Source: Chloroflexota bacterium
GTDB lineage: Bacteria; Chloroflexota; Anaerolineae; 4572-78; J111
Assembly (NCBI GenBank): GCA_020049115.1
Contig: JAIFLK010000258.1
Span: forward strand, 1 to 20,220
DNA: 20,220 bases
Direction: 5' to 3'
The notes under the pieces were generated by a model. That model saw nothing but the letters and a program-made list of their open reading frames with translations. It did not search any database and was not told the origin of the DNA. The translations under genes were made by a program, and so were the position numbers. Below, in pieces: positions 2,955 through 19,519 of the stretch; position 1 is the stretch's first letter, and each line of letters starts with the position of its first letter.

Positions 2955-3013
2955 CGTTAAGCGAGTCAGCGATTATAAGGCTCAAAGCCTTATAATCGCT
3001 GACTCGCTTAACG
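2955..3013. repeat. Perfect 27-bp-stem palindrome (cgttaagcgagtcagcgattataaggc-tcaaa-reverse complement), a composite of the GCGAGTCAGC repeat and the TTATAAGG hairpin core
   Basis: Reverse complement of 2955-2981 equals 2987-3013. 'agcgagtcagcg' occurs twice in tandem (2944-2955, 2961-2972) and again, inverted, at 5481-5553. Confidence 0.85.
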
Positions 3014-4393
3014 TGTCTCAATGCTTAAATTAACGTCGGCGGGGGTGAAATAAAGGGTCGCATTACCCTGACTCACCGCCTCTAACGCCTCTTGTTTTCG
3101 TAAGGTATTAAAAATCGCCAGCTTATTTGGCAAAGGTAACTCCTCGCCTAACCCATTAAGGAAGGCTTGCACCTTAAACGCCTCCGCCTCACCCGCCGTC
3201 AACGCCTCCACTTGGGCATGGTCACGCCGCAAGGCCAACAGTTGCCCACGCATCTGCTCCGCCTCAATTTCACCTTTAATCTGTTTCAACTTCGTTTCAT
3301 TTTCACTCTCTTGCTTTTGTTGCCGATTGAGACGGTTGGTGGTTTCAGTGATAATTTCCTGTAATATCCGTTGCGTGGCGGCATCTTTACAGGAAATAGA
3401 GCGCACCTCCACCGCATTGAGTTGCACCCCGCGCTCGGTATAAAACGTCATATCACTTTCTAACACCGCCTGATAAATGATTAAATTGAAACTCGCCAAA
3501 AATTTCTCCAGCGTCACCTGTGACACCGATTGAATGATGGCACTGCGAGCATGGGAGCAAATATCGCCTGGCGTGTCATCGGTTTTGCTAATCATGGCCT
3601 CAAAATCCGCCACCGCCCAAAAAAAGGTAATGCCAATCGTTAATTCTACGTTATCTTGAGTCCGCGCCTCAAACTCATACCACATGAACTTCGGACGCAA
3701 ATCAAACTTGGTCAGGCGCAAATCGCGACGCTCTTTATGCAGCCCCGTTGACCAGCGCAACTCCACAATTTCGGAGTAAGGGTCAAGAAAAAAGGCACGG
3801 TCAGGGTCGGTGCCGCGCTTAATGGTATATTTCCCTGTTCTATCACGGATAATAACGACTTCGTTATCTTCCAATAAAATCCGTTGACGCACTTTTACAA
3901 TTTCTTGTTGGGCGGTTGGAATAAAAACTTGCGGTGTCGTAATTAACTCCAACTGCCCCGTATGCGTATCACGCACCATGACGGCAGTTTGTTCATCAAT
4001 GTTAATCCCATCTTCAACTTTAACGATGATTTGCTCAGTCGGTTGCACATAGATACTTTGCTCCCCTCGTTCCACCCGCACCATGCCTGTTTTTTCGTCC
4101 ATGATACGAACATATTGATGTTTTTTCAGGGGAACAGCCTGTAATTCAACATCAATTTCATCAGTTGCTGACAGAAACAATAATTTTGGCCCAATTTCAA
4201 TCCGTTTTTCACCTGTTAAAACATTAAGCACCCGTACATAATCGGTTGGCCCCAAAACAGTCGCCTTACGCCGCTTCACCCGCCAAAAGGGGCGCGCCCA
4301 ACATTGGCCAGGCCCATTCACCACCCACCGTTTGCTAAAGGCTGCAATGAGTAACTGTTCGTCATCTTTGAGAAAGTATAGCCAGGGAATCAT
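3008..4393 (-). CDS. Major vault protein (MVP) homologue, short bacterial form: ~4 MVP repeats, an SPFH-like shoulder domain and a cap-helix region
   Basis: 461-aa ORF. Repeated ~50-aa modules 'YVRVLNVLTGEKRIEIGPK', 'YVRIMDEKTGMVRVERGEQSIYVQP', 'AVMVRDTHTGQLELITTPQVFIP' and 'VVIIRDRTGKYTIKRGTDPDRAFFLDP' resemble MVP repeats. The segment 'TQDNVELTIGITFFWAVADFEAMISKTDDTPGDICSHARSAIIQSVSQVTLEKF' aligns with the eukaryotic MVP shoulder (…ADHARLQLQLAYNWHFEV…[27 protein letters not shown]…). A following E/Q/A-rich helix resembles the cap-helix. Confidence 0.65.
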   Translation of the reverse strand: MIPWLYFLKDDEQLLIAAFSKRWVVNGPGQCWARPFWRVKRRKATVLGPTDYVRVLNVLTGEKRIEIGPKLLFLSATDEIDVELQAVPLKKHQYVRIMDEKTGMVRVERGEQSIYVQPTEQIIVKVEDGINIDEQTAVMVRDTHTGQLELITTPQVFIPTAQQEIVKVRQRILLEDNEVVIIRDRTGKYTIKRGTDPDRAFFLDPYSEIVELRWSTGLHKERRDLRLTKFDLRPKFMWYEFEARTQDNVELTIGITFFWAVADFEAMISKTDDTPGDICSHARSAIIQSVSQVTLEKFLASFNLIIYQAVLESDMTFYTERGVQLNAVEVRSISCKDAATQRILQEIITETTNRLNRQQKQESENETKLKQIKGEIEAEQMRGQLLALRRDHAQVEALTAGEAEAFKVQAFLNGLGEELPLPNKLAIFNTLRKQEALEAVSQGNATLYFTPADVNLSIETR

Positions 4394-5480: not shown

Positions 5481-5553
5481 AATAGCGAGTCAGCGAGTCA
5501 GCTATCAGCAAAAAAGCTGACAGACTGAACGCTGACTAGCTGACTCGCTGACA
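5481..5553. repeat. Imperfect inverted repeat built from GCGAGTCAGC units (agcgagtcagcgagtcagctatcagc … gctgactagctgactcgctga)
   Basis: Direct tandem 'gcgagtcagc' on the left arm and its reverse complement on the right. It lies in the divergent intergenic region between the Rpn gene and the histidine phosphatase gene and belongs to the same family as 2944-3013. Confidence 0.7.
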
Positions 5554-5567
5554 ACTGAAGGCTAAAT

Positions 5568-7471: not shown

Positions 7472-7480
7472 AACCCTAAC

Positions 7481-7667
7481 GCCTAGCTGTCCTAGTACAC
7501 CGTTCATTTAATTATTAGTATATCCGAACAGACAGGAATGTCTGTTCCACCGTTGGTAGGTCAGACATTCCTGTCTGACAATGTCTGTTCCACCGTTGGT
7601 AGGTCAGACATTCCTGTCTGACCATATACTAAAAACTAAATGAACAATCCACTAGTACAGCTAGGCA
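7481..7667. mobile_element. MITE-like non-autonomous element: ~43-bp terminal inverted repeats around two tandem ~44-bp units, each carrying small palindromes
   Basis: Left end 'gcctagctgtcctagtacaccgttcatttaattattagtatat' versus the reverse complement of the right end 'gcctagctgtactagtggattgttcatttagtttttagtatat' (~80% identity). The internal unit 'aatgtctgttccaccgttggtaggtcagacattcctgtctgac' occurs twice in tandem and contains the palindromes acagaca…tgtctgt and gtcagaca…tgtctgac. Confidence 0.6.
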
Positions 7668-7678
7668 TGAGTAACTAA

Positions 7679-7828: not shown

Positions 7829-8707
7829 ATGAAGCTAACAAGTCGGTTCGTCCCATTAATATTGGCACTATTGTTCATGGTCGCCACCCAACCCTTCACC
7901 CAAGCACAAGGCGAATTGCCCTCGGTGCGGGTCGTTCACACCTCACCCGATGCGCCACCGTTTGATGTGTTAGCCAACGGCAGGTTGACCTTTCCCCAAG
8001 TGAAATATGGCACGGCTTCGGACTATCGCCCCTTTAATGCGGGCAATTATAACCTATTACGGGTATTGACGACAGGCTTAACCTCCACCGCTGTCTTAAC
8101 GATGGGCCTTGATTTGAGTTTCAATACTCATTATAGTGTCTTAATGTTAGGGCGTGCCACCAATTTGAGCGCGCTCACATTGGTCGATGACCCCATCATG
8201 CCGCCGCTAGGTCAAGCTAAATTACGTTTTGTTCATGCTGCCCCTGATGCCCCTGCCGTAGACATTGCGCTTCGAAATGGGCGAGTGCTGTTTAGTAATG
8301 TGGCTTATAAGTGGATTGGGGCTTATCAAACGGTGGCCGCGGGAACGTATGATTTAGAAATTCGTGTGGCTGGCACAACCCAAATTATTACGACAATTCC
8401 CCAGGTACAATTAAATTCCGCCACCGTCCACACCATGTTAGCCATTGGCCTATTATCAGGCCCGCAGCCAGGTCTTAACGTACTTTTGTTAAATGATGTT
8501 TCTAGTGGCTTAACCCCGCCCATGGAGTCCAAATCTTTAGATTTGACTGCGCCACATTACTATTATCACAACTACACCCCCGCCGACCTGAACCAGTATC
8601 CACCGCCCGTTTATTATCAACCCCAGGAAATACACCCCCTGAATTATTACGAAGTTGCTCCCAATTCCGCCTATCCCCCTCCGTGTCCTACCAGGCGTTG
8701 TTGGTAA
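7829..8707 (+). CDS. Secreted DUF4397 domain protein
   Basis: Signal peptide 'LILALLFMVATQPFTQAQG'. The repeats 'VRVVHTSPDAPPFDVLANG' and 'LRFVHAAPDAPAVDIALRNG' match the DUF4397 signature (VR.VHASPDAP.VDV..DG). The C-terminus is Pro/Tyr-rich. Confidence 0.65.
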   Translation: MKLTSRFVPLILALLFMVATQPFTQAQGELPSVRVVHTSPDAPPFDVLANGRLTFPQVKYGTASDYRPFNAGNYNLLRVLTTGLTSTAVLTMGLDLSFNTHYSVLMLGRATNLSALTLVDDPIMPPLGQAKLRFVHAAPDAPAVDIALRNGRVLFSNVAYKWIGAYQTVAAGTYDLEIRVAGTTQIITTIPQVQLNSATVHTMLAIGLLSGPQPGLNVLLLNDVSSGLTPPMESKSLDLTAPHYYYHNYTPADLNQYPPPVYYQPQEIHPLNYYEVAPNSAYPPPCPTRRCW

Positions 8708-8779: not shown

Positions 8780-9487
8780 ATGACCATCCCCATGTGGATG
8801 CAAGCAAATGCCTGGCGCGAGATTTTTGCTCGTGCCTTTGAAAATTGGCCTGTTCAAGTCAACATCTCCCCCGAATGGCTCATTAATCCTGAGACTCATC
8901 GGCGGCTGAAATTAGATTTATTTTACCCTGATGCTCAGATCGCGGTGCGTTTTGAGGGGATACAGCCCGAAAAGCGGAAAGCCCGCCCTAGCTTAGAGGA
9001 AGAAGAACAACAACGCGCCCGCGAGACCGCGAGAGTGGAGGTTTGCCGTGAGCATGGCGTTCATTTATTGTTACTTGATGCCGCCTCAGAGGAAATTGCG
9101 GATGAGTTCCTACAAGTAGACCTCATTTTGAGCCAAGCCCAACGCGCCCTTACCGATGTAACCTGGCAAGAAAATATCAAGACCGCCCGCTTCAAAATCG
9201 CCCAAATTGGGCGACCTTTAACCCAAATTAACTCTCTTAAAACGTATGCCGATTTATGGGAAGACCGCCAATTTCAAATGGCACTCCCTCAAGAAAATCA
9301 AAAACCTGCTGCCGCCCCCACCATTTTTACCGTGGGCATGGATGTCAATCATCAGCTATTTGGCCTCGGTACAATTTTACAAGTTGAGCCAAGTGCCTCC
9401 GATGTTATCCTCACGGTGGATTTTTTGGAAGCGGGTAAAAAGATGTTTGCGGCCAGTTTAGTGGCAGATAAATTGAATACATTGTAG
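8780..9487 (+). CDS. Hypothetical protein: N-terminal DUF559/Vsr-like restriction-endonuclease-fold motif and C-terminal UvrD-C/DUF3553-like (Tudor-like) motif
   Basis: 'LKLDLFYPDAQIAVRFEGIQPEK…RETARVEVCREHGVHLL' resembles the DUF559 pattern (D.y.P.…lAiE.DG…). The C-terminal 'FTVGMDVNHQLFGLGTILQVEPSASDVILTVDFLEAGKKMF' resembles the UvrD C-terminal / DUF3553 pattern (G.rV.H..FG.G.v…V.F…G.K.l). Both are weak motif-level matches. Confidence 0.4.
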   Translation: MTIPMWMQANAWREIFARAFENWPVQVNISPEWLINPETHRRLKLDLFYPDAQIAVRFEGIQPEKRKARPSLEEEEQQRARETARVEVCREHGVHLLLLDAASEEIADEFLQVDLILSQAQRALTDVTWQENIKTARFKIAQIGRPLTQINSLKTYADLWEDRQFQMALPQENQKPAAAPTIFTVGMDVNHQLFGLGTILQVEPSASDVILTVDFLEAGKKMFAASLVADKLNTL

Positions 9488-9508: not shown

Positions 9509-9566
9509 CACTGAACTGTTTATTTGGTTTTATACTGCGTACCGAATGAAAATGGCACTTTTGGCG

Positions 9567-9617
9567 TAGGAGTCCGCAATTATTTGCGGGCTGTCCGCAA
9601 AGGATTGCGGACTCCTA
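9567..9617. repeat. Palindrome gtaggagtccgcaat…attgcggactccta with a nested hairpin gcggg-ctgt-ccgc; a partial direct copy lies at 9828-9853 (gtaggagtccacaattccttgtggg)
   Basis: 14-bp perfect inverted arms. The partial copy is ~80% identical over 25 bp and sits 36 bp before the 9889 start codon. Confidence 0.6.
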
Positions 9618-9639
9618 ATCATCATAAAAGTGTAAGTCT

Positions 9640-9745
9640 CAAACGAAATGCAGTATAGTACATGGTCAGACAAGAATGTCCGACCTACCGACGGTAGAAC
9701 AGACATTCTTGTCTGTTCGGATATGCTAGAAATTAAATAAATAGT
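9640..9745. mobile_element. Degenerate single-unit copy of the 7481-7667 MITE-like element, in opposite orientation
   Basis: 'gtcagacaagaatgtccgacctaccgacggtagaacagacattcttgtctgttcggatat' is ~90% identical to the reverse complement of 7524-7583. The flank 'gctagaaattaaataaatag' resembles the reverse complement of the element-1 terminal repeat. Confidence 0.5.
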
Positions 9746-9888
9746 CCCCTACGTATAGATTTAAGTTAACAATTGTTAAGCTACTTGGCAAAATAAGCCG
9801 CTAATTATATAATAGGGGGAAATATGTAGGAGTCCACAATTCCTTGTGGGCAGTTCCCTCATAACCGCGCCTAATGGAGAAGTAAATT

Positions 9889-10980
9889 ATGTTATGGCAA
9901 AGCTACTATACCCCTGAATCGCTTGATGAAGTTTTAGACTTGCTGGCAGAACATCGTGAAAAAGGGCCTCGTTTATTGGCTGGCGGCACGGATTTAATGG
10001 TTGAAATTGAGCGTAGCCAGCAACCCCCCAAAATTGTCATTGATGTAAGTTGTATCCCTGGTTTAGATACTATTTGGCAAGATGAACAAAAAAATATCCA
10101 TTTAGGGCCATTAGCCACCCATAATCAAGTGGTTGGCTCTAAATTATGTGTCCAAAAAGCCTTCCCTCTTGCCCAAGCATGTTGGCAAGTCGGCTCACCC
10201 CAAATTCGTAATCGTGGCACGGTGGCGGGCAATATCGTAACCGCGTCGCCCGCGAATGATACCATTACGCCTCTCGTGGCTTTGGGCGCGACCCTGACCC
10301 TGAAAAGTGTGCGCGGCAGTCGCGCCGTCAAAATTGATGAATTTTTCAAAGGGGTGCGCTCAACGGTGCTAGAACCTGATGAAATGGTGGTTGATATTAG
10401 CTTTCCCGCGCTCAATGGCTACGAAATCGGCACATTTATTAAGGTTGGCTTGCGGCGCGCTCAGGCTATTTCCGTGGTAAACATTGCGGTAGTTTTGGGC
10501 ATGTTCGCCGATACCATTACTCGCGCTCGGATTGCTTTTGGTAGCGTTGCCCCAACGATTATCCGCTCTTTTGATGCGGAACGCTTTTTGAGTGGCAAAG
10601 TGATGACCCAAGAGGTCATTGACCGTGTGGGGGCGATTGCCGAGCAAACCATTTTTCCCATTAGTGATGTGCGCGGTTCCGCCGAATATCGCCGTTATAT
10701 GGTTAAAACCGTGACCCGCCATGCGCTGCAATCTCTCAGCCAAGGCACCGAGTCGGACATCTTTCCGCCCAAACCCGTTATGTTATGGGGCAAAACTAAT
10801 GGCTCATTTAAGCCGCATGAGGGTGGTTCAGTGGTGCATACGGTGGATAAAAATGAGCCGATTAGCACCACTATTAATGGTCAACCGCAGGCGATTAGCG
10901 GGGCAAATGGCAAAACCCTCCTCCGCATGTTACGCGAAAACGCGAACTTGACTGGTACGAAAGAGGGTTCGCGAACTTGA
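9889..10980 (+). pseudogene. Xanthine-dehydrogenase-family FAD-binding subunit (CoxM/XdhB-like). Its 3' end already encodes the start of the [2Fe-2S] domain; it is truncated by a frameshift from a 29-bp tandem duplication
   Basis: FAD_binding_5 motifs are present ('LLAGGTDLMVE', 'GTVAGNIVTASPANDTITPLVALGATL') and the CO-dehydrogenase flavoprotein C-terminal region is present ('RGSAEYRRYMVKTVTRHAL'). The tail '…[33 protein letters not shown]' corresponds to the N-terminus of the 2Fe-2S small subunit and then runs into SRT-stop. Confidence 0.7.
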
Positions 10981-10998
10981 CTGGTACGAAAGAGGGTT
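10941..10998 (+). repeat. Exact 29-bp tandem duplication (cgcgaacttgactggtacgaaagagggtt ×2) inside the fused FAD/[2Fe-2S] gene
   Basis: Positions 10941-10969 are identical to 10970-10998. 29 is not a multiple of 3. Deleting one copy reads through in frame as …[18 protein letters not shown]…. Confidence 0.9.
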
Positions 10999-11369
10999 GC
11001 GCCGAGGGCGAATGTGGGGCCTGTACGGTGATGTTAGATGGCATTGCAGTGGATAGCTGCCTCGTGCCAGCCCCGCGCGCCCATCAAAGTGAGATTGTTA
11101 CGATTGAAGGATTGGCGCAAGGTGAAACCCTGCATCCTGTTCAACAGGCATTTATTGATGAAGGCGCGGTGCAATGTGGTTACTGTACGCCAGGCTTTTT
11201 GATGAGTGGAGCTAATTTGATGGAAGAACGTAAACGCCCGACTCATGATGATATTAAGCAAGCCATTACGGGTAATTTGTGTCGCTGTACGGGATATTAC
11301 AAAATATTGCAAGCGTTAGAGCAATCCTGTGGCGTGGTTTCGGCCAAGCCTAGAATGAAGCATAATTAA
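10977..11369 (+). pseudogene. [2Fe-2S]-binding small-subunit (CoxS/XdhC-like) portion of the disrupted fused gene; the ORF begins at TTG and lacks its own N-terminal ~35 residues
   Basis: Plant-ferredoxin-type motif C-x4-C-x2-C-x11-C ([22 protein letters not shown]) and the second cluster CGYCTPGF…CRCTGY are present. The N-terminal β-grasp residues are encoded in the upstream ORF. Confidence 0.7.
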
Positions 11370-11406: not shown

Positions 11407-12330
11407 ATGACCACATTAACGCTAGAAATGGCTGAGACCACGAATTTAACTGAAACACCCTCTGACCCATACCTTTACGGTTGGCGACAGGTGACGCGTT
11501 ACGCGCCTGATGGGGAGATGGTGTTTGTGCTTCAGCCCTTAACCTTAGATGATATATTACACCCCCAAGAGGATGACCAACGGATGCACGCGCCTTACCA
11601 TGAACGAATTTGTCGTTATTTAGCCGATGTTTTTGCAACCTATTTAGCCCATGACCCGACTGTTCAGGTCTTTACTGATTTGCGGGTGGCGTGGAATCAT
11701 CCTTACATTGACCCGCATACACCTGATATTTCGGTGGTCTTTGGGGTGAATAATCAGGGGCAGGAATGGACTACTTTTTATGAAGCCAAAGAGGGAACGC
11801 GGCCAACTTTGGTGGTAGAAGTGACCTCACCCTCCACGCGATTGTTAGATTTGGTGGATAAGTTTGACGAGTATGAGCGCGTTGGCTTAGAGTATTACAT
11901 TATTATTGACCGTGTTAAACAGCGCAGTAATGTACAACGGCGAGTGTTAGGGTTTCATTGGACACCACAGGGTTATGAAAAGTTACCTTTGAATGAACAA
12001 GGTTGGTTGTGGTTAGAGCCTGTGCGGGTTTGGGTCACTTGGGAAGACGATGAAATAGTTTGTTATGATGAACAAGGCAAATCTATTCCTAATTATCTCG
12101 CTGTAACCCAGGCCTGGGTTGAAGCGGAGGCTAAAGCTGAGGCGGAGGCTACGGCGCGGGTTGAAGCGGAGGCTAAAGCTGAGGCGGCGGCTACGGCGCG
12201 AGTTGAAGCGGAATCTAAGGCGCATGCAGCGGAGGCCAAAGCTGAATCCGAAGTTAAAGCGCGGGTTGAACTTGAAGCCCGTTTACAACAGCTTGAAGCG
12301 GAGTTGCGCCGTTTACAAGGCAATAGTTAA
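11407..12330 (+). CDS. Uma2-family (DUF820) restriction-endonuclease-like protein with a C-terminal Ala/Glu/Lys-rich coiled-coil repeat extension
   Basis: 'RPTLVVEVTSPSTRLLDLVDKFDEYERVGLEYYIIIDR' matches the Uma2 core (P.l.vEV.SpsT…D…K…Y…Gv.EYwivD). There is a strong RBS aaggaggt 6 nt upstream. The C-terminal repeats are (VEAEAKAEAEATAR)n and end in LQQLEAELRRLQ. Confidence 0.7.
   Translation: MTTLTLEMAETTNLTETPSDPYLYGWRQVTRYAPDGEMVFVLQPLTLDDILHPQEDDQRMHAPYHERICRYLADVFATYLAHDPTVQVFTDLRVAWNHPYIDPHTPDISVVFGVNNQGQEWTTFYEAKEGTRPTLVVEVTSPSTRLLDLVDKFDEYERVGLEYYIIIDRVKQRSNVQRRVLGFHWTPQGYEKLPLNEQGWLWLEPVRVWVTWEDDEIVCYDEQGKSIPNYLAVTQAWVEAEAKAEAEATARVEAEAKAEAAATARVEAESKAHAAEAKAESEVKARVELEARLQQLEAELRRLQGNS
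12118..12290 (+). repeat. Tandem ~54-bp coding repeats (gaagcggaggctaaagctgaggcggaggctacggcgcgggtt…) encoding the Uma2 C-terminal coiled-coil
   Basis: Near-identical units are visible at 12118-12171 and 12166-12219, with degenerate units after. Confidence 0.6.
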
Positions 12331-12336
12331 ATGGTC

Positions 12337-12369
12337 AGCCCTTATAAGGTTTTGAACCTTATAAGGGCT
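12337..12369. repeat. TTATAAGG-family hairpin (agcccTTATAAGGtt-ttg-aaCCTTATAAgggct) between the Uma2 gene and the molybdopterin subunit gene
   Basis: Perfect 15-bp arms. The outer arms are identical to the 1729 copy, while the inner core is the AGGTT/AACCT variant. Confidence 0.8.
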
Positions 12370-12427
12370 TAAAGTTGTCTGTGGCGATTTTTTTGAAAAT
12401 CCTAAAATTATTTATAAGTAGGTCAAC

Positions 12428-14662
12428 ATGAGCAATCAACTCATTGGCACATCTATCAAACGAATCGATGCACGCGGCAAGGTCACAGGGGAGGCCATTT
12501 ACCCTGGTGACCGTAATTTTGGCGATGAATTGTGGCTTAAAATACTCTTCGCCCGCCGCCCCCATGCCCGCGTGGTCAAAATTAATACTAAAGCTGCCGA
12601 AACGTTGCCTGGTGTATTGGGCATTTTAACGGCCAAAGATGTCCCCGTCAATCAATATGGTTTGCAAGTCCCTGACCAACCCGTTTTATGCGGCCCTGGC
12701 TCCAATAAAAAAGGGGGCGATATTGTGCGCTTTATCGGCGACCATGTGGCGGTGGTGATTGCGGAAACGGAAGAAATTGCCACCAAAGCCCGCGATTTAA
12801 TTCGGGTGGAGTATGAGGATTTGCCCGTAGTTTATAATGCGGAATATGCCATGTCAGGGCAAGCCCCACAGTTGCACCCCAATGTGGCGAAAAATATCGC
12901 GGCTTATCAGCGTATTCGCAAAGGCGATACGGACGCGGCCTGGAATGAATGTAATATTATTATTGAAGGGACGTATCAAACACCATTTCAGGAACATGCC
13001 TATTTACAGCCCGAAGCGGGTACGGCTTACATGGACGCTGAGGGACGGATTACAGTACATTGCGCGGGGCAATGGACATGGGAAGACCAACAGCAAATCG
13101 CCCATGCTTTGGATTTGCCACCCGATAAAATTCGGGTGATTTATGATGCCATTGGTGGGGCATTTGGTGGCCGCGAAGATATGAGTGTGCAAATCGTTTT
13201 GGCTCTGGCCGTTTTGCGGATGTATCAACGGCATGGCAATCGCCGCCCCGTTAAAATTATTTGGACGCGCGAAGAGTCCATGATTGGTCACTGCAAACGT
13301 CATCCCATGCTTTTTCGCACGAAATGGGGCGCGAAACGGGACGGTAAATTGGTGGCGGCGGAGGTGGAAATTATTGCCGATGGCGGCGCGTACATGTACA
13401 CGAGTAACAAAGTGTTAGGCAATGCCGTTATGTGTTGCACGGGGCCGTATGAATTTAGCCATGTCAAAGTGGACGCGTACGCGGTTTATACCAATAATTT
13501 GGTGTCGGGCGCATTTCGCGGGTTTGGTGCGCCGCAAGCCCATTTTGTGGCGGAAATGCAAATGAATAAATTGGCCGAGAAAATGGGTAAAGACCCCGTA
13601 GAAGTACGGCTGAAAAATTTGCTCACCGTTGATTCTACGCTGTCCGTTGGCACGACTATCCCTGGCGGAGTCAGTTTGGAGAAGGTGCTGCGGGAGGCCG
13701 CTTGGCAATCTAACTGGCGCAGTCGGGTTGGCCCGCGCGGGGAGAATGACCCTGATTTTCCTGATGAGTTGCCGCGTTTAGTGAAGGGCAGTGGCGTGGC
13801 AGTGGCCTTCAAAAATATCGGCTTTAGCTTGGGCTATCAAGAAAATAGCTGGGCGGGGGTTGAATTTCATGGCGAAAGCGATATTGAGCAAGTGATTGTT
13901 AAAATTGCGGGGGCAGATGTGGGGCAGGGGCATCACACGGTCATGGCGCAAATCGCGGCTGAGGTTGCGGGGGTGGGCATGGATAAAGTGAAGGTTGAGG
14001 CTTCCGATACCGCGTTTACCGAAAGTTCTGGCAGTGCGAGTGCGTCGCGCCTCACCTTTATGGCGGGTAATGCAGTTAAAGAGGCGGCGCAATTTGCGCT
14101 CAAGAAATGGCGGTCAGAAGAGCGTCCTGCCATTGCCGAGGCCACCTGGCTTGCCCCGAAAACCACCCCCTTTGACCCACAAACGGGGCATAGTTTACCC
14201 AACTTTGCGTATGGTTATGTGGCGCAGGTGGTGGAGGTGTTGGTGGATACCGAGACGGGCAGTATTACGGTGCAACGGGTGGTTTGCGCCGATGACGTGG
14301 GCAAGGCGATTAACCCTGAGCAAATTATCGGGCAAATTGAGGGCGGGATTGTGCAGGCGCATGGGTATGCGCTGTTGGAAGATTTTCGCATGGACAAGGG
14401 GCAGGTTTTAACGCCCAATTTCACTACCTATCTTATCCCTGGGGTGTATGATATTCCGAAACAAATTGTCCCCATTATTGTGGAAGACCCACATCCCCAA
14501 GGCCCCTTTGGGGCGCGTGGCATGGCCGAAATGCCGATGATTCCATACACGCCCGCCGTCGCTGCCGCCGTATTTGATGCCATTGGTATTTGGTTTGATG
14601 AGTTTCCTTTGACCCCAGAACGGGTTTTACGGGGGCTAGGCAAGGTGCGGAGTCGGCTGTAA
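12428..14662 (+). CDS. Xanthine dehydrogenase / aldehyde oxidase family molybdopterin-binding large subunit
   Basis: 744-aa ORF. N-terminal a/b-hammerhead region 'IGTSIKRIDARGKVTGEAIYPGD'. The active-site segment 'SGAFRGFGAPQ' matches the XDH/AOX 'AFRGFGGPQ' motif rather than the CODH AYRCSFR or AYRGAGR loops. Confidence 0.8.
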   Translation: MSNQLIGTSIKRIDARGKVTGEAIYPGDRNFGDELWLKILFARRPHARVVKINTKAAETLPGVLGILTAKDVPVNQYGLQVPDQPVLCGPGSNKKGGDIVRFIGDHVAVVIAETEEIATKARDLIRVEYEDLPVVYNAEYAMSGQAPQLHPNVAKNIAAYQRIRKGDTDAAWNECNIIIEGTYQTPFQEHAYLQPEAGTAYMDAEGRITVHCAGQWTWEDQQQIAHALDLPPDKIRVIYDAIGGAFGGREDMSVQIVLALAVLRMYQRHGNRRPVKIIWTREESMIGHCKRHPMLFRTKWGAKRDGKLVAAEVEIIADGGAYMYTSNKVLGNAVMCCTGPYEFSHVKVDAYAVYTNNLVSGAFRGFGAPQAHFVAEMQMNKLAEKMGKDPVEVRLKNLLTVDSTLSVGTTIPGGVSLEKVLREAAWQSNWRSRVGPRGENDPDFPDELPRLVKGSGVAVAFKNIGFSLGYQENSWAGVEFHGESDIEQVIVKIAGADVGQGHHTVMAQIAAEVAGVGMDKVKVEASDTAFTESSGSASASRLTFMAGNAVKEAAQFALKKWRSEERPAIAEATWLAPKTTPFDPQTGHSLPNFAYGYVAQVVEVLVDTETGSITVQRVVCADDVGKAINPEQIIGQIEGGIVQAHGYALLEDFRMDKGQVLTPNFTTYLIPGVYDIPKQIVPIIVEDPHPQGPFGARGMAEMPMIPYTPAVAAAVFDAIGIWFDEFPLTPERVLRGLGKVRSRL

Positions 14663-14670
14663 GTTTAGTA

Positions 14671-14703
14671 AGACCTACAAGGTTTTAGAAACCTTGCAGG
14701 TCT
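14671..14703. terminator. Hairpin agACCTACAAGGTTT-tag-AAACCTTGCAGGTct (one A/C mismatch), 8 nt after the stop of the molybdopterin subunit and followed by T-rich sequence; sister of the 8719 hairpin
   Basis: Inverted repeat with 14/15 pairing, followed by taggtttta. Confidence 0.5.
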
Positions 14704-14728
14704 TAGGTTTTAACTGAAAGTTGCTAGT

Positions 14729-14756
14729 TTGACAAAATTAGGATTCAGGCTATAAT
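14729..14756 (+). promoter_or_regulatory. Consensus sigma70 promoter TTGACA-16-TATAAT driving tRNA-Leu
   Basis: TTGACA at 14729-14734 and TATAAT at 14751-14756 with a 16-bp spacer. The tRNA 5' end at 14770 is 13 nt downstream of the -10. Confidence 0.75.
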
Positions 14757-14769
14757 CCAATAGATATTC

Positions 14770-14850
14770 GCCTCGGTGGCGGAACGGCATACGCAGCAGG
14801 TTGAGGGCCTGTGCCCGATGGGCGTGAGAGTTCAAATCTCTCCCGAGGCA
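14770..14850 (+). tRNA. tRNA-Leu (anticodon GAG), class II with long variable arm
   Basis: Acceptor stem GCCTCGG/CCGAGGC with discriminator A. D-arm GCG(G)…CGC. Anticodon stem GCAGG/CCTGT with loop TTGAGGG. Variable arm GCCC-gat-GGGC. T-arm GAGAG-TTCAAAT-CTCTC. No CCA is encoded. Confidence 0.8.
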
Positions 14851-14866
14851 TCTATATAAAACAACG

Positions 14867-14894
14867 AACCCCCTATTACGGGGGTTTTTTGTTT
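14867..14894 (+). terminator. Intrinsic terminator after tRNA-Leu (aaCCCCC-tattac-GGGGGtttttt)
   Basis: 5-7-bp GC stem followed by T6 and gtttt. Confidence 0.75.
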
Positions 14895-14903
14895 TGCTTA
14901 AAC

Positions 14904-14937
14904 AAAAGAGGTTGACGTATTTGCGTCAACCTCTTTT
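14904..14937. terminator. Bidirectional intrinsic terminator, perfect 14-bp-stem hairpin (aaaagaggttgacg-tatttg-cgtcaacctctttt), serving the convergent 14968..18270 gene and the tRNA
   Basis: The arms are exact reverse complements, with an A-run on the 5' side and a T-run on the 3' side so each strand gets a U-tail. It lies between convergent transcription units. Confidence 0.7.
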
Positions 14938-14967
14938 AATATGAAATTAGCTACTCATTAAAAAAAA

Positions 14968-17900
14968 TTAATACGTTCTTTGGAAAGTAACCTCAAAGGA
15001 GCTATGAAAAAGCGAAATAGCATTGGTATCACCATTTTCTTCACAGGTGCGGTTGGTGGCAAAGTCTGGGGTGATATGTTCGGCAATGTCGCTCGTGCCA
15101 CCCATTACTTGCACTTGATACGTTCCTTTGAACATGGCAAAATCAATGTGACCTGCTTCAGGCTGTCCGATCAAGTTAGTTTTAGTTTCGGTTTGTGGCG
15201 TAACAAAACCATCTGGTACGGGCGACCATTGGATTTTGATGGGTAGACCATTAATGCCTTGTCCAGAGGGGTCAATTACGTGGACAAATATATGGTGCTT
15301 GCCTTTGTTTTCGCAAGGGGTCAATTCCCGAATGCTGACCAAACGGAAATCCACATTGGGCGTGGCGGTGGCTTCAGGGGTGGGGGTGTCGGTGGGCGGA
15401 CGTGGAGTGCTGGTTTGGGGGATGGGGGTTTCTGTAGGAACACCCGTTGAGGTTGGCGTGGTGGTAGGTGTATCAACCATAGTCGGGGTACTGGTTGGGG
15501 TGGTGGTATCTGTGGGAGTTGGCGTATTGGTCGGGATGGGGGTCATGGTAGAGGTACTGGTGGCGGTTGGGGTGTCGGTTGGGGTGGGGGTTGGCGTGGT
15601 GGTGGGGGTGGTCGTCTCCACAAAGGGCAATGCAGCAGCCATGCCCGCAACCGCGCCGTCATCGCGCATTTGTTCGGCTATGGTACGGTTATCTCCTGGC
15701 AATGCGCCACCATCATTGAGCGAGGCGGCTAAAACATCCATAATGGCCCAGGGGAGCATGATACCACAGAGCCAGACAACGAATAAGATAACGAAAAGTA
15801 AACGAAATTTGGCCCCAATAGTACGTTTGGCAAACCACATAGAGACGGAAGTGCGATTGGATGGAGCGGCGGTGGCAGTGGCTTGTTTTTGTAATTTTCT
15901 ATTAGAAACGGCCTGCATTTGCGGCGCGATCTGGGGTGGGCGTTGTTCGGTAGAGATTGTACGCGGTGCAGGTTTGGCTACGGTTTCTAACGGCGGCGGG
16001 GTAGGATTAGACTGAACCACTGTTTTCTCTTTAGGTCGTCGCTTTTTGGCCGCTGTAGGCGCAACTTTAGTTGGCTCGGCGGGGCGGCGGTTAGAGCGAT
16101 TAGATGTGCCGCTAGTGGGCGCGGTGGGTTTAGAGGGGTTGCGCGGCGGAACAGGTGGCGCGACTGCGGGCATGCCTTGTGTAAATTGCGAGTGAGTGTT
16201 GGCGGGCTGAAAGGCTTGGGTGTGTTGGGAGTGAACGTTGGCGGGTGTAATAGGCTGGGTATGTTGCCCATGTACTGTTGGTTTGAGGGGCTGAGTGAGT
16301 TGCGAATGATTGACTGGCCCAGTCGGGCGGAGGGGCTGGGTGTGTTGACCATGCACGGCAGACGCGCTAGGGCGAATGGGTGGCGTATAGGCCGAAGGGG
16401 GGGACATGGGAGCCATGGGTTGGGTGAATTGGGAATGGTTGGGCGAGACGGCGGGGCTAATCCGTCGTGGTGGAGCCGATTGGGGGCGTGAGGGCGGCAT
16501 GGGGTGCAACGGTACAGGCGGATTGGCGCGCACGGGTACGGGCAAATTGCTTGGGTTGACGGGCTTAAGGCGTACGGGTGGTAGAGACAGGGCATGCCCT
16601 GTCTCTACGGGTAGCCCACGTTGACCAGAAGCGTTCCGCATACGATTCATGACCTCGTCTAACCGTTCACTTAAGAGACGGCTAAAAGTCATGGCGAGCA
16701 TGGGATAACGGCTGAGAAAGCGGTCAAAGTCATTTTTGGTCAGTACCCAAACTTCACTATCTGTAACTACTTGGGCGGTGGCGGGTTGCCCTTTGCCAGA
16801 GATGAGGCCAATTTCGCCCAGAAAGTCACCTGGCTTAAAGGTTTCTAACAACATGGCCCCTTGCGGAGTTGCTACCCAATGTTCAATTTGCCCTTTAGAA
16901 ATGAAATACATTTTATCGGCAGGTTGACCCGCTTGGTAGATGACTCCGCCTGCACGATAATAATCGGGGCGTAAATAAGAGGATAATTCATCTAATTGGG
17001 CGCGGGAGAGGCCGCCTAAAATAGCAATCTTTTGTAAGTGAGTTTCTGAGGTATAATCTTCTGCCGCCTTGAATTGAGCGCGTAAGGCTTGGCTGAGGGA
17101 GGCACTGAGTTGGGGATATTTGACCAACAGGTGGTCAAAATCAGCCCGATATAAGCCCCATAAATTGGTGTCAGCAATAGAGTAGGCGGTGAAGCCGCGA
17201 GTTTTGCCCGTGAGCAGTGCGGCCTCGCCAAAATATTCACCTTCCGTTAGGCGTGCTAGCAACTTCGTGGGGCGGCCTGGGGTTTCATCAAAAGTATCAA
17301 CCACGCCAGAGTCGATAATGTACATGGCATCGCCAGGCGCGCCTTGCGGAAAGATGATTTGCCCCGCAGGAACGTGACGTAATAAGAGTAAATTTGCCAT
17401 GTCATTGAGGGCGGCCTCGTCTAAATTGGCAAACATGCCGATTTGTTTCAGAATGGAAATAGCATGGGCTTGGTCAGCCGTATCTAAGCGGGAACTTAAG
17501 TTTTGACTTAAGTTGGTTTTAATGCTAGGGGTGGTTTCTACCAAAGCGGTAAAATCAGTTGGGCTAAGTTGCCAGATGATGGTTTCGGTGGCTGCTTGGG
17601 CGGTATAGGCATGGGGCTTGTTGGATAAAACCGCCATTTCGCCAAAGGCATCGCCTGGCATCAGTTCGGTAAAATCATTATCCAATTGGCCGAGCAATCG
17701 CACAATGCCCTGGTCAATGAAGAAAATGCCCTGCGGGGCTTCTCCGTCACGGTAAATTGTGCCGTGGGGGTAATAACGGCGCGGGATTAACCGTTGGGCG
17801 ATTTGGGCTAATTCATAGGGCGATAGATTTTGTAATAATTGTACTTGACTCAATTGCATGGTTAGCTGCGGATGATAAGGCACAATGGCGCGCTCCATCG

Positions 17901-18270
17901 CTAAACTGAGCGCGAGGCCAATTTCAAAATGCTCATCAATCACCTCGGTCATGGCGGAGGTGGTTAATGCCCAGGCGGTCACATCAGTGGTGGCTTGGGC
18001 GGCCATTGCATGGCTTTGACCTAAGAAAAAATCGGCCTCGCCTAACAAACTGCCTGAGCCTAAGTTGGCTAAAATTGTGCCATCACTGGCGACCAGTTTT
18101 ACCCAGCCTTCTTTAATCAAGTAAAGGGTATCGCTATCGCTACCGATTTGAAACAATGTTTCAGCGGGGCGATAGCTTTCCAGGCGTAACCGTTTGCCAA
18201 TAGCACGTTGAGCTTCCTCGCTCAAATGGGCAAATAGCGGACTATTTTTAATAAATTCTTCTTTCATCAT
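14968..18270 (-). CDS. Large membrane protein: four tandem cyclic-nucleotide-binding domains, Pro-rich H(S/G)Q(F/H/L)TQ repeats, one transmembrane helix, a Thr/Pro-rich linker and a Cys-pair C-terminal extracytoplasmic β-domain shared with the next two genes
   Basis: 1100-aa ORF. Four cNMP-binding modules each carry the (F/L)GE(M/A/I)(A/G)L phosphate-binding-cassette-like motif ('LGEADFFLG', 'FGEMAVLSN', 'FGEAALLTG', 'LGEIGLISG'). ~7 repeats of 'VNHSQLTQPLKPT / VHGQHTQPITPAN'. TM 'FRLLFVILFVVWLCGIMLPWAIM'. Linker 'TTTPTTTPTPTPTDTPTATSTS…'. C-terminal 'PCENKGKHHIFVHVIDPSGQGINGLPIKIQW…GHIDFAMFKGTYQVQV…NRTCEENG'. Confidence 0.7.
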   Translation of the reverse strand: MMKEEFIKNSPLFAHLSEEAQRAIGKRLRLESYRPAETLFQIGSDSDTLYLIKEGWVKLVASDGTILANLGSGSLLGEADFFLGQSHAMAAQATTDVTAWALTTSAMTEVIDEHFEIGLALSLAMERAIVPYHPQLTMQLSQVQLLQNLSPYELAQIAQRLIPRRYYPHGTIYRDGEAPQGIFFIDQGIVRLLGQLDNDFTELMPGDAFGEMAVLSNKPHAYTAQAATETIIWQLSPTDFTALVETTPSIKTNLSQNLSSRLDTADQAHAISILKQIGMFANLDEAALNDMANLLLLRHVPAGQIIFPQGAPGDAMYIIDSGVVDTFDETPGRPTKLLARLTEGEYFGEAALLTGKTRGFTAYSIADTNLWGLYRADFDHLLVKYPQLSASLSQALRAQFKAAEDYTSETHLQKIAILGGLSRAQLDELSSYLRPDYYRAGGVIYQAGQPADKMYFISKGQIEHWVATPQGAMLLETFKPGDFLGEIGLISGKGQPATAQVVTDSEVWVLTKNDFDRFLSRYPMLAMTFSRLLSERLDEVMNRMRNASGQRGLPVETGHALSLPPVRLKPVNPSNLPVPVRANPPVPLHPMPPSRPQSAPPRRISPAVSPNHSQFTQPMAPMSPPSAYTPPIRPSASAVHGQHTQPLRPTGPVNHSQLTQPLKPTVHGQHTQPITPANVHSQHTQAFQPANTHSQFTQGMPAVAPPVPPRNPSKPTAPTSGTSNRSNRRPAEPTKVAPTAAKKRRPKEKTVVQSNPTPPPLETVAKPAPRTISTEQRPPQIAPQMQAVSNRKLQKQATATAAPSNRTSVSMWFAKRTIGAKFRLLFVILFVVWLCGIMLPWAIMDVLAASLNDGGALPGDNRTIAEQMRDDGAVAGMAAALPFVETTTPTTTPTPTPTDTPTATSTSTMTPIPTNTPTPTDTTTPTSTPTMVDTPTTTPTSTGVPTETPIPQTSTPRPPTDTPTPEATATPNVDFRLVSIRELTPCENKGKHHIFVHVIDPSGQGINGLPIKIQWSPVPDGFVTPQTETKTNLIGQPEAGHIDFAMFKGTYQVQVMGGTSDIAEHITPDFATNRTCEENGDTNAISLFHSSFEVTFQRTY
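16130..16620 (-). repeat. Approximate span of the Pro-rich H(S/G)Q(F/H/L)TQ-type ~11-aa coding repeats inside the 14968..18270 gene
   Basis: Repeated 'HSQFTQ', 'HGQHTQ', 'HSQLTQ', 'HSQHTQ' in the translation. The low-complexity DNA generates spurious antisense ORFs (15987..16595, 16177..16491, 16406..16624). Coordinates are estimated, not counted. Confidence 0.4.
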
Positions 18271-18306
18271 GAGACGATTAAGACTTACGCAAAAACCAAA
18301 CCTACC

Positions 18307-18393: not shown

Positions 18394-19446
18394 TTATTTA
18401 ACTCCTTGTTGCAGCACCAGTTGCCACGCGGGCAAACTGTTCTGGCAAAGGGGTAGATTATTTAAGGTTATTTCGGGTATAGGTGGGGTAGTTTTCATAT
18501 TAACCACTTCAACCTGATAAGTTTCAGTTAATTTCATTTGAAAATCGGCATAGCCAGGCTCTATTTCGGGCTTGAAACCCGTGAATAAATGATCTTCACC
18601 ATTCGCCCAACTTACTTTAATTTCGATGCCTGGGATACCTTGACCGAGTGTATCATGAATATAAATTCTCAGCAATCCTGTGTTAAGGTTATCGCAGACT
18701 CCTTTAGAATGTTTGACTGCTAAAGGGGCGTTTAGGTTACGGGTTGGAGTGACTTTAGGGAGAAAGGAGTAGGGCGTAGGGAGTAAGGTGGAAGTAATGG
18801 TTGGACGTAAGGTGGAAGGAGTAAGGGATAGGGTGGCAGTGACCGTTGAGGAGTAGGGTAGAGGGATTAGGGTAGAAGAAGTAAGGGCTAAGGTGGCGGT
18901 CATGGTTGGGGTGGCGCGAGTGGGGGTGTTGGTGGGGCGCGGGGTTGGAGTAATAGTCGGTGTGGTGGTAGAGGTTGGCGTGGGAGTATTGGTTGCTGTG
19001 GGTGTGGTTAAGTAAGTTGACATAAGCGGTGATACTTTGCCCAGGGCTTGGGCTAATTCAACCAGTGCAGCGATGTCTCGGATGTCTCGCTCTTGATTTA
19101 TGTATGCTTCCGTAATAATAATGATGGTTTGGTTTATATTGGGGTCAGCGACGGCGGCTAATCGAGTTTGCGCCTGGTCTAGGTGATGATTATGGGCGTA
19201 GGCCAGGGCAATGAGCCGAATATAAATGGCTTTGGCTGATGGGCGCAAATCCGCAGGTGTGACTGGGAGGGGGCGAGGGTCAAGCAGCCAACCGTAGGTG
19301 AGTGATAAAGCCAAACCCACCATAAAACCAAAAAGAAAACCGCCCACCCACCAGGCACGGTCATGGGGATTTCGGCGCGGAGTGGGCTTAGACGGTTGAA
19401 CAACTTTGGACAAAGTTTGGTTTTTTAGGGTAGAAAGTAGGGGCAA
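18394..19446 (-). CDS. Membrane-anchored paralogue: short cytoplasmic N-terminus, one TM helix, extracytoplasmic helical region, Thr/Pro-rich linker and the shared Cys-pair C-terminal β-domain
   Basis: TM 'WWVGGFLFGFMVGLALSLTYGWLL'. Linker 'TTPTATNTPTPTSTTTPTITPTPRPTNTPTRATPT…'. C-terminal 'GVCDNLNTGLLRIYIHDTLGQGIPGIEIKVSW…GYADFQMKLTETYQVEV…NNLPLCQNS' aligns with the C-termini of the 14968..18270 and 19520.. genes. Confidence 0.65.
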   Translation of the reverse strand: MPLLSTLKNQTLSKVVQPSKPTPRRNPHDRAWWVGGFLFGFMVGLALSLTYGWLLDPRPLPVTPADLRPSAKAIYIRLIALAYAHNHHLDQAQTRLAAVADPNINQTIIIITEAYINQERDIRDIAALVELAQALGKVSPLMSTYLTTPTATNTPTPTSTTTPTITPTPRPTNTPTRATPTMTATLALTSSTLIPLPYSSTVTATLSLTPSTLRPTITSTLLPTPYSFLPKVTPTRNLNAPLAVKHSKGVCDNLNTGLLRIYIHDTLGQGIPGIEIKVSWANGEDHLFTGFKPEIEPGYADFQMKLTETYQVEVVNMKTTPPIPEITLNNLPLCQNSLPAWQLVLQQGVK

Positions 19447-19519
19447 TGCCTTGTGCTTGCCCCCATTGTGGGTAGGGACAAGCCCTACCCCTACTATCTA
19501 CTTTCTACCTTCTACCATT

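Follow-up and report, generated by a model that had tools for sequence, protein, structure and literature searches.

Organization of the locus

The window analysed here, by which we mean the entire 20,220-nt stretch of contig JAIFLK010000258.1, carries on its forward strand an interrupted gene (positions 9889 to 11369) for a subunit in which an FAD-binding flavoprotein is fused to two [2Fe-2S] domains; its native form comprises 1452 nt and encodes 483 amino acids. It is followed by a Uma2-family gene identified by Pfam (11407 to 12330, forward strand) and by the intact gene of the partner molybdopterin-binding subunit (12428 to 14662, forward strand), whose 744-aa product matches the Pfam families Ald_Xan_dh_C, MoCoBD_1 and MoCoBD_2. 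A promoter-like site, TTGGCA-17-TATAAT, lies on the same strand at 9785 to 9813, about 75 nt 5' of the ATG; with 11 of 12 positions matching it is purely a consensus match, and the total number of promoter-like sites in the region does not exceed the shuffled expectation.

The interruption coincides with an exact tandem duplication of 29 bp. By direct string comparison, copy 1 (10941 to 10969, forward strand) and copy 2 (10970 to 10998, forward strand) are identical, as had been stated in the preliminary description of this DNA, each reading CGCGAACTTGACTGGTACGAAAGAGGGTT; TRF likewise reports a period of 29 with 2.0 copies and 100% matches. The second copy is treated here as the extra one, as it is missing from all 12 related contigs described below. 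The edges of the repeat are sharp: position 10940 is an A where the unit ends in T, and position 10999 is a G where the unit begins with C. Since both flanking bases mismatch the unit, there are exactly 2.0 copies and the junction between them, GAGGGTT/CGCGAAC, has no microhomology. By our own arithmetic, an exact 29-nt tandem copy would be expected in 20 kb about 20,000 x 4^-29 times, or ~7e-14, and the duplication is therefore not a product of chance. A scan of all 20,220 bases for exact tandem repeats with unit lengths of 10-199 nt returned only two, namely this one and a second with a 43-bp unit at 7537-7622, which is equally beyond chance.

Read from the ATG at 9889, the second copy is out of frame and leads to a TGA at 10978-10980, which terminates an upstream ORF of 363 aa (9889 to 10980, forward strand) directly after the residues SRT. 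This ORF contains the entire flavoprotein part, the linker and approximately 36 residues from the start of Fer2 (β1-β2-α1), and includes no cysteine ligand. The downstream ORF of 130 aa (10977 to 11369, forward strand) starts at a TTG that overlaps the upstream stop codon (TTGA, 10977-10980) and is preceded by GAGGG 10 nt 5' of it; all eight cysteine ligands of both [2Fe-2S] clusters are encoded there, and the N-terminal β1-β2-α1 of the ferredoxin fold is lacking. The earlier claims that the upstream ORF holds a ferredoxin-like start before its stop, and that the downstream ORF restarts at TTG without an N-terminus of its own, thus hold. In silico deletion of one 29-bp copy yields a continuous ORF, in agreement with the in-frame fusion that had been predicted, with a length of 483 aa against the former estimate of ~490. 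According to Pfam and a structural model, the break falls inside the Fer2 fold, between α1 (residues 344-351) and the first cysteine ligand, C361. The AlphaFold2 model, built from 40 homologues, has a mean pLDDT of 66 with residues 178-294 below 50, and was used only for the secondary structure of Fer2, whose N-terminus consists of strands at 325-329 and 332-336 and a helix at 344-351. If the split is real, it most likely inactivates the electron-transfer subunit.

The repaired subunit and its predicted enzyme

The repaired 483-aa protein contains four Pfam domains in the order FAD_binding_5 (PF00941, residues 5-174, E-value 2e-45), CO_deh_flav_C (PF03450, 185-282, 1e-23), Fer2 (PF00111, 328-377) and Fer2_2 (PF01799, 395-467). 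Eight cysteines, C361, C366, C369, C381, C420, C423, C455 and C457, are conserved without exception in 40 homologues. The neighbouring molybdenum subunit shows the hammerhead, MoCoBD_1 and MoCoBD_2 domains in Pfam. With the FAD-binding and flavoprotein C-terminal domains, two [2Fe-2S] domains and a partner molybdenum subunit all present, the locus belongs to the xanthine oxidase/aerobic CO dehydrogenase family. The native gene encodes a single chain composed of a CoxM/XdhB-like flavoprotein module, a linker of ~40 residues and a CoxS/XdhC-like two-cluster [2Fe-2S] module. By homology to this family, the subunit would pair with the 744-aa molybdopterin subunit in an alpha-beta type arrangement to form a hydroxylase or dehydrogenase of the XDH family, in which electrons would pass from molybdenum through FeS-I and FeS-II to FAD.

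The substrate is not transferable from any curated family. The best NCBIfam relative of the molybdenum subunit is PucD (541 bits, curated cut-off 784); the flavoprotein half has glyceraldehyde dehydrogenase beta and XdhB as its top matches (XdhB_XDHase 194 bits, cut-off 310), and the FeS half matches XdhC_XDHase best (181 bits, cut-off 217). As all these scores lie under the curated cut-offs, none of the three is an equivalog. The nearest solved molybdenum subunits are those of nicotinate dehydrogenase and 4-hydroxybenzoyl-CoA reductase (alpha), and the C-terminal G-A-x-G/E-x-x-E segment aligns with the latter. Rfam gave zero matches within the window, and hence no riboswitch offers a clue to the substrate. 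Form I aerobic CO dehydrogenase was considered and rejected, with TIGR02416 scoring 213.5 bits against a cut-off of 991 and NF040766 scoring 260 against 950. The label 'carbon-monoxide dehydrogenase medium subunit' that JGI attaches to homologues is a generic name.

Distribution of the fused architecture

The fusion of FAD to FeS modules in a single chain is the standard, widespread form of this subunit in Anaerolineae and Chloroflexota, and it is already catalogued. The 120 best database hits to the repaired protein are all 446-508 aa long, with 67-74% identity over 91-100% coverage, and all four Pfam domains are found in 119 of them, the remaining one lacking only the Fer2 call. Named hits among these 120 are either 'FAD binding domain-containing protein' from Anaerolineae/Chloroflexota or carry the JGI label mentioned above. 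When residues 240-402 alone were searched against 1.84 billion cluster representatives (50%-identity clusters), approximately 90 of the best 150 representatives, by our own count, aligned in one stretch over the flavoprotein C-terminus, the linker and Fer2. The lowest identity among those junction-spanning representatives within the best 150 was 36%, and ~45 of the ~90 are complete proteins, 454-546 aa in length, whose junction occupies residues ~240-400. Because such hits fall into many 50%-identity clusters, the architecture is old and diverse as well as already catalogued. The novelty implied by the preliminary description is therefore not borne out, as the architecture is widespread and annotated by domain and by name in public databases.

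Members of the Anaerolineae/Chloroflexota family, for example P0007 from Anaerolineales bacterium HSG6 and P0116 from Anaerolineae MAGs, share the identical four-domain order at a length of ~470-490 aa, with 67-74% identity over 97-100% of the length and a single-copy LTGTKEGC...C...C motif. The duplicated unit encodes LTGTKEGC, a segment that homologues have in one copy and with hardly any variation. A gene for a molybdenum subunit of 745-757 aa comes next in this family, and in three Chloroflexota loci it was located 131-165 nt 3' of a fused gene encoding 479-487 aa, whereas in the population to which the window belongs the two are separated by a Uma2 gene. Compared with this family, the 29-bp break is a feature of the one contig studied here. 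No split orthologues with a native stop and a complete, independent Fer2 N-terminus at this position were found, and the expected continuous single-copy orthologues were recovered both from the 12 near-identical contigs and from more distant Chloroflexota, where the fused proteins measure 466-508 aa.

The fusion differs from both well-studied arrangements of these modules. E. coli XdhB (FAD) and XdhC (FeS), and B. subtilis PucC and PucE with PucD, are separate polypeptides, unlike the 483-aa chain, even though E. coli XdhB/XdhC and B. subtilis PucD are the best NCBIfam equivalog matches to the repaired halves and to the molybdenum subunit, respectively. The E. coli gene order, FAD and then FeS, is the order of the fusion. 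The separate-subunit type (CoxM/CoxS, XdhB/XdhC, PucC/PucE) can be discarded, as the native gene is a single ORF and the break in the window lies within Fer2 rather than between modules. The other arrangement is represented by Rhodobacter capsulatus XdhA (PDB 1JRO chain A), which, together with eukaryotic XDH/AOX, is the best PDB sequence match (E 3.5e-53). In XdhA, and in the N-terminal part of the eukaryotic enzymes, FeS and FAD modules are likewise fused and have a molybdenum module as partner, but FeS comes first and FAD second in both, and 1JRO_A and the eukaryotic enzymes match in two separate stretches. An XdhA-type small subunit was rejected on this order and on TIGR02963, which reaches 320.8 bits against a cut-off of 467, also in two stretches. 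Thus the preliminary description was right that the domains come in the opposite order to the XdhA type, as is seen in the Pfam, NCBIfam and PDB matches, and that the native gene is unlike separate CoxM/CoxS genes, one 483-aa ORF being present in all 12 related contigs. None of the PDB chains matched has the FAD-then-FeS order, the fusion family having no solved structure, and a limited literature search found no published characterization of it.

Related contigs and the source population

Exact-sequence look-ups identified 12 contigs from 12 other samples or assemblies that cover the 29-bp site (L001-L012), of which seven are from JGI, three from ENA and two from Logan, whose contigs are assemblies of SRA runs. 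They share the gene order of the window at 98.5-100% nucleotide identity, and every one of them has a single 29-bp copy and an intact 483-aa ORF, so that the earlier proposal that the relevant gene is a fusion is borne out. The translation equals the repaired window ORF exactly in nine of the 12, and three are identical to the repaired gene at the nucleotide level across all 1452 nt. Variant codons among the intact alleles comprise 46 synonymous and 7 non-synonymous cases, which indicates purifying selection on the fused ORF. Beyond the break, the FeS part and the molybdenum subunit of the window match intact alleles exactly, and no further decay is visible.

Relative to every contig covering the respective site, the differences private to the window consist of the two duplications and of SNPs at 3674, 4028, 4030 and 4031; the 3-bp deletion that the window shows after 9618 recurs in L005, one of ten contigs covering that site. 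The private SNPs denote a slightly distinct strain or sample, in which real private mutations are possible, and this observation counts against a technical origin of the duplications. The 43-bp duplication (2 x 43 bp, 7537 to 7622, no strand assigned, junction 7579/7580), detected by TRF and by the string scan, is intergenic and private to this contig, and each of the nine other contigs spanning this site has a single copy. The unit of this duplication is located centrally in a dispersed palindromic element, which recurs in inverted orientation (88%) at 9660-9741. The 43-bp duplication lies 3.4 kb upstream of the 29-bp duplication, and the two have in common exactly 2.0 copies, zero junction microhomology and zero divergence between copies. 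Comparable private duplications relative to the window are absent from ~130 kb of other related contigs.

Labels on its proteins show the window to be a complete 20,220-bp contig of NCBI WGS record JFJP01, which IMG also includes. Another JGI contig, MIS_1004946 (L013), is 99.98% identical to window positions 12331-18297 and is the basis for linking the window to the Middle Island Sinkhole. Assemblies of the mats from this site employed IDBA-UD, Velvet and 454 data, and 20 split 'partial genes' were merged (Grim et al. 2021, PMC8651085). The 58-nt double unit was unmatched in the metagenome_contigs and genome_contigs collections, and a 41-nt control common to both alleles was equally unmatched there, which places this population outside both collections. 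The 363-aa and 130-aa products, along with a window-private 461-aa variant, had no other exact record in an index that apparently does not hold the window contig.

Every contig of this population that extends into the interval carries the Uma2 gene, which is absent from orthologous loci in Chloroflexota, where the enzyme genes are adjacent. Copy number of a 42-bp array within the Uma2 gene varies in the population, giving proteins of 293, 300, 307 and 321 aa; repeat copy number truly varies at this locus, so slippage-type events do occur, which is a second point against a technical origin. A cyanobacterial source, prompted by Uma2, DUF4351 and heptamer repeats, was rejected on the basis of the best named relatives, which are from Anaerolineae/Chloroflexota. 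For the fused gene and a neighbouring esterase alike, these relatives have 67-78% identity. As the esterase shares this affiliation, the contig can be assigned to an Anaerolineae-like organism, and the fused gene looks vertically inherited.

Origin of the duplication

The 29-bp duplication is private to one metagenome contig, and we infer an artefactual origin: we favour, with some confidence, an artefact of contig joining over a recent mutation. Two overlapping sequence ends may have been abutted during contig building with the overlap left un-collapsed, and the 43-bp duplication would have arisen likewise, at another un-collapsed join. Several lines of evidence argue for this explanation. 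First, the same contig contains a second private exact duplication, and that one is in non-coding DNA, while ~130 kb of related contigs hold no such private duplications. Second, the junctions are blunt, as from a blunt join, and the copies have not diverged; replication slippage usually would not give exactly 2.0 copies with zero-microhomology junctions. Third, the differences shown by the window, 4 SNPs to 3 indels, are indel-heavy and error-like. Fourth, both duplication sites are fragile in assembly. In L008 a strain SNP (position 10977) falls inside the 29-bp unit, and the FeS-coding region is where two other assemblies are broken; the Logan contigs L009 and L010 end inside the second copy of the palindromic element, at window position 9712. 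Finally, the sequence downstream of the break has not decayed. The exact duplication is confined to a single assembly among sequences that are otherwise near-identical, and the two duplications resemble the un-collapsed join overlaps of draft and metagenome assemblies in being exact, two-copy, blunt, restricted to one assembly, repeated and situated at fragile sites. They differ from each other in length, 29 and 43, so that one fixed k-mer overlap does not fit both.

A real and very recent loss of function in a minor strain is a tenable though distinctly less probable explanation, in which a de novo 29-bp duplication shifted the frame of the fused gene and the 43-bp event was independent and neutral. 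The private SNPs, found in no other contig, point to a distinct haplotype, the Uma2 array attests to real variation of repeat copy number in the population, the hairpin-rich 43-bp site could promote real rearrangement, and exact copies lacking secondary decay suit a recent event. However, two exact duplications of at least 29 bp within 3.4 kb, set against ~4 SNPs in 20 kb, constitute an improbable mutational spectrum, and neither junction has microhomology. In addition, none of 12 other samples yielded an assembly with the two-copy allele, and purifying selection acts on the gene in the population.

It is far less probable that both blunt, exact duplications are real products of a process active in one strain, such as fill-in and end-joining of staggered double-strand breaks. 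Were both duplications real, the xdh-like gene would be switched OFF in a manner that allows precise reversion, and the TTGA overlap might still permit two fragments to be made from it.

A reversible on/off contingency locus, raised as an option in the preliminary description, is very improbable. One-copy ON and two-copy OFF alleles would coexist and interconvert by slippage; precise reversion of a perfect tandem duplication is possible in principle, and both allelic states are represented in public data. Copy number varying in the population would mark such a locus, yet all 12 other contigs have exactly one copy, so that two copies are confined to one of 13 assemblies, and three or more occur in none. 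The unit is not a pre-existing repeat tract, and more distant orthologues keep a single, nearly invariant LTGTKEGC. Moreover, the similar private duplication nearby in non-coding DNA indicates nothing specific to this gene and points to a technical or non-specific origin, which leaves the switch unsupported.

The least credible proposal is a tolerated real split, in which 363-aa FAD and 130-aa FeS proteins are both translated and complement each other as fragments of an active three-subunit enzyme: the TTGA stop/start overlap at 10977-10980 with GAGGG 10 nt upstream, the retention of all eight cysteine ligands in the downstream ORF and the separate FAD and FeS subunits that are the norm in many family members would suit it, but the break interrupts the ferredoxin fold itself, between α1 and the first cysteine ligand, instead of separating domains, and no homologues are split at this point.

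Implications

If the duplication is indeed an un-collapsed contig join, it is most likely not a property of the organism at all. The finding is an ordinary one: a common fused subunit gene, annotated already, in a broken and probably mis-assembled copy. Its main value is in quality control, as the contig is annotated in NCBI and IMG with two truncated proteins (363 and 130 aa) in place of one 483-aa subunit, and such split calls skew gene-family and pseudogene statistics. The organism itself almost certainly makes one 483-aa subunit. In a wider context, this FAD-to-FeS fused subunit is circularly permuted relative to the well-studied XdhA arrangement and is abundant in Chloroflexota; independently of this window, which adds no discovery in that respect, the permuted fusion family may merit biochemical study.

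The gene order around the molybdoenzyme in this population differs from that in more distant Chloroflexota. A Uma2-family gene (11407-12330), encoding a putative restriction endonuclease fold, separates the fused FAD/FeS gene from the Mo-subunit gene in the window, and its insertion was seen in every contig of the same population that reaches the interval between the enzyme genes, whereas the two enzyme genes are adjacent in the relatives L017, L019 and L020. The C-terminus of the Uma2 protein contains an in-frame, Ala/Glu-rich array of 42-bp repeats (12116-12212), whose copy number differs between contigs to give proteins of 293, 300, 307 and 321 aa. This copy-number variation among contigs is real. 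Several assemblies break at the array, with L001 ending at 12336, and L013 (the JGI contig MIS_1004946) and L014 starting at 12331 and 12336, respectively.

Differences between strains are grouped in short patches (8468-8551, 10114-10485, 10509-10878 and 12171-12270), each found in one or two contigs, and those inside the fused FAD/FeS gene are nearly all synonymous. These clustered patches look like recombination tracts that originated from a more divergent lineage. Elsewhere, the window and L001 share a 90-bp segment (1697-1786) that L003 lacks; it falls in the gap between two ORFs whose ends are at 1683 and 1870.

A second exact tandem duplication, of 2 x 43 bp (7537-7622), forms the middle part of a palindromic intergenic element (7476-7671) and is private to the window contig, being single-copy in all nine related contigs that span this position. 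This element has the hairpins GAACAGACAGGAATGTCTGTTC and GTCAGACATTCCTGTCTGAC and is flanked by an imperfect inverted repeat of 48 nt. A dispersed palindromic element of ~82 nt was identified in two mutually inverted copies (7503-7584 and 9660-9741) that are 88% complementary. Between them lie the DUF4397 gene at 7829-8707 and, at 8780-9487, an ORF with a tudor domain; the Logan contigs L009 and L010 both break within the copy at 9660-9741. The ~82-nt element may belong to a MITE/REP-like class of repeats in this genome. The 400-nt leader 5' of the fused gene carries, at 9566-9617 and 9826-9869, a second family of small palindromic repeats, GTAGGAGTCCGCAAT...ATTGCGGACTCCTA, whose hairpin has a shorter form in the related contig L005. 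A TGG following position 9618 is missing from the window and present in nine of ten related contigs.

Among the other genes, a 461-aa ORF on the reverse strand (3008-4393) matches SPFH/Band 7, Major Vault Protein repeat (Vault_3) and MVP shoulder domains, and is a bacterial vault-shoulder-like protein; it is adjoined by a DUF4236/TPR protein. The 1100-aa protein encoded on the reverse strand at 14968-18270 has four cyclic-nucleotide-binding domains and no further recognised domain. Several intergenic regions (2931-2972, 5484-5563, 18756-18876 and 19491-19515) carry short tandem repeats whose units are 4-15 nt long. These are reminiscent of the short tandemly repeated sequences found in filamentous cyanobacteria; despite this likeness, the gene content of the window points to Anaerolineae.
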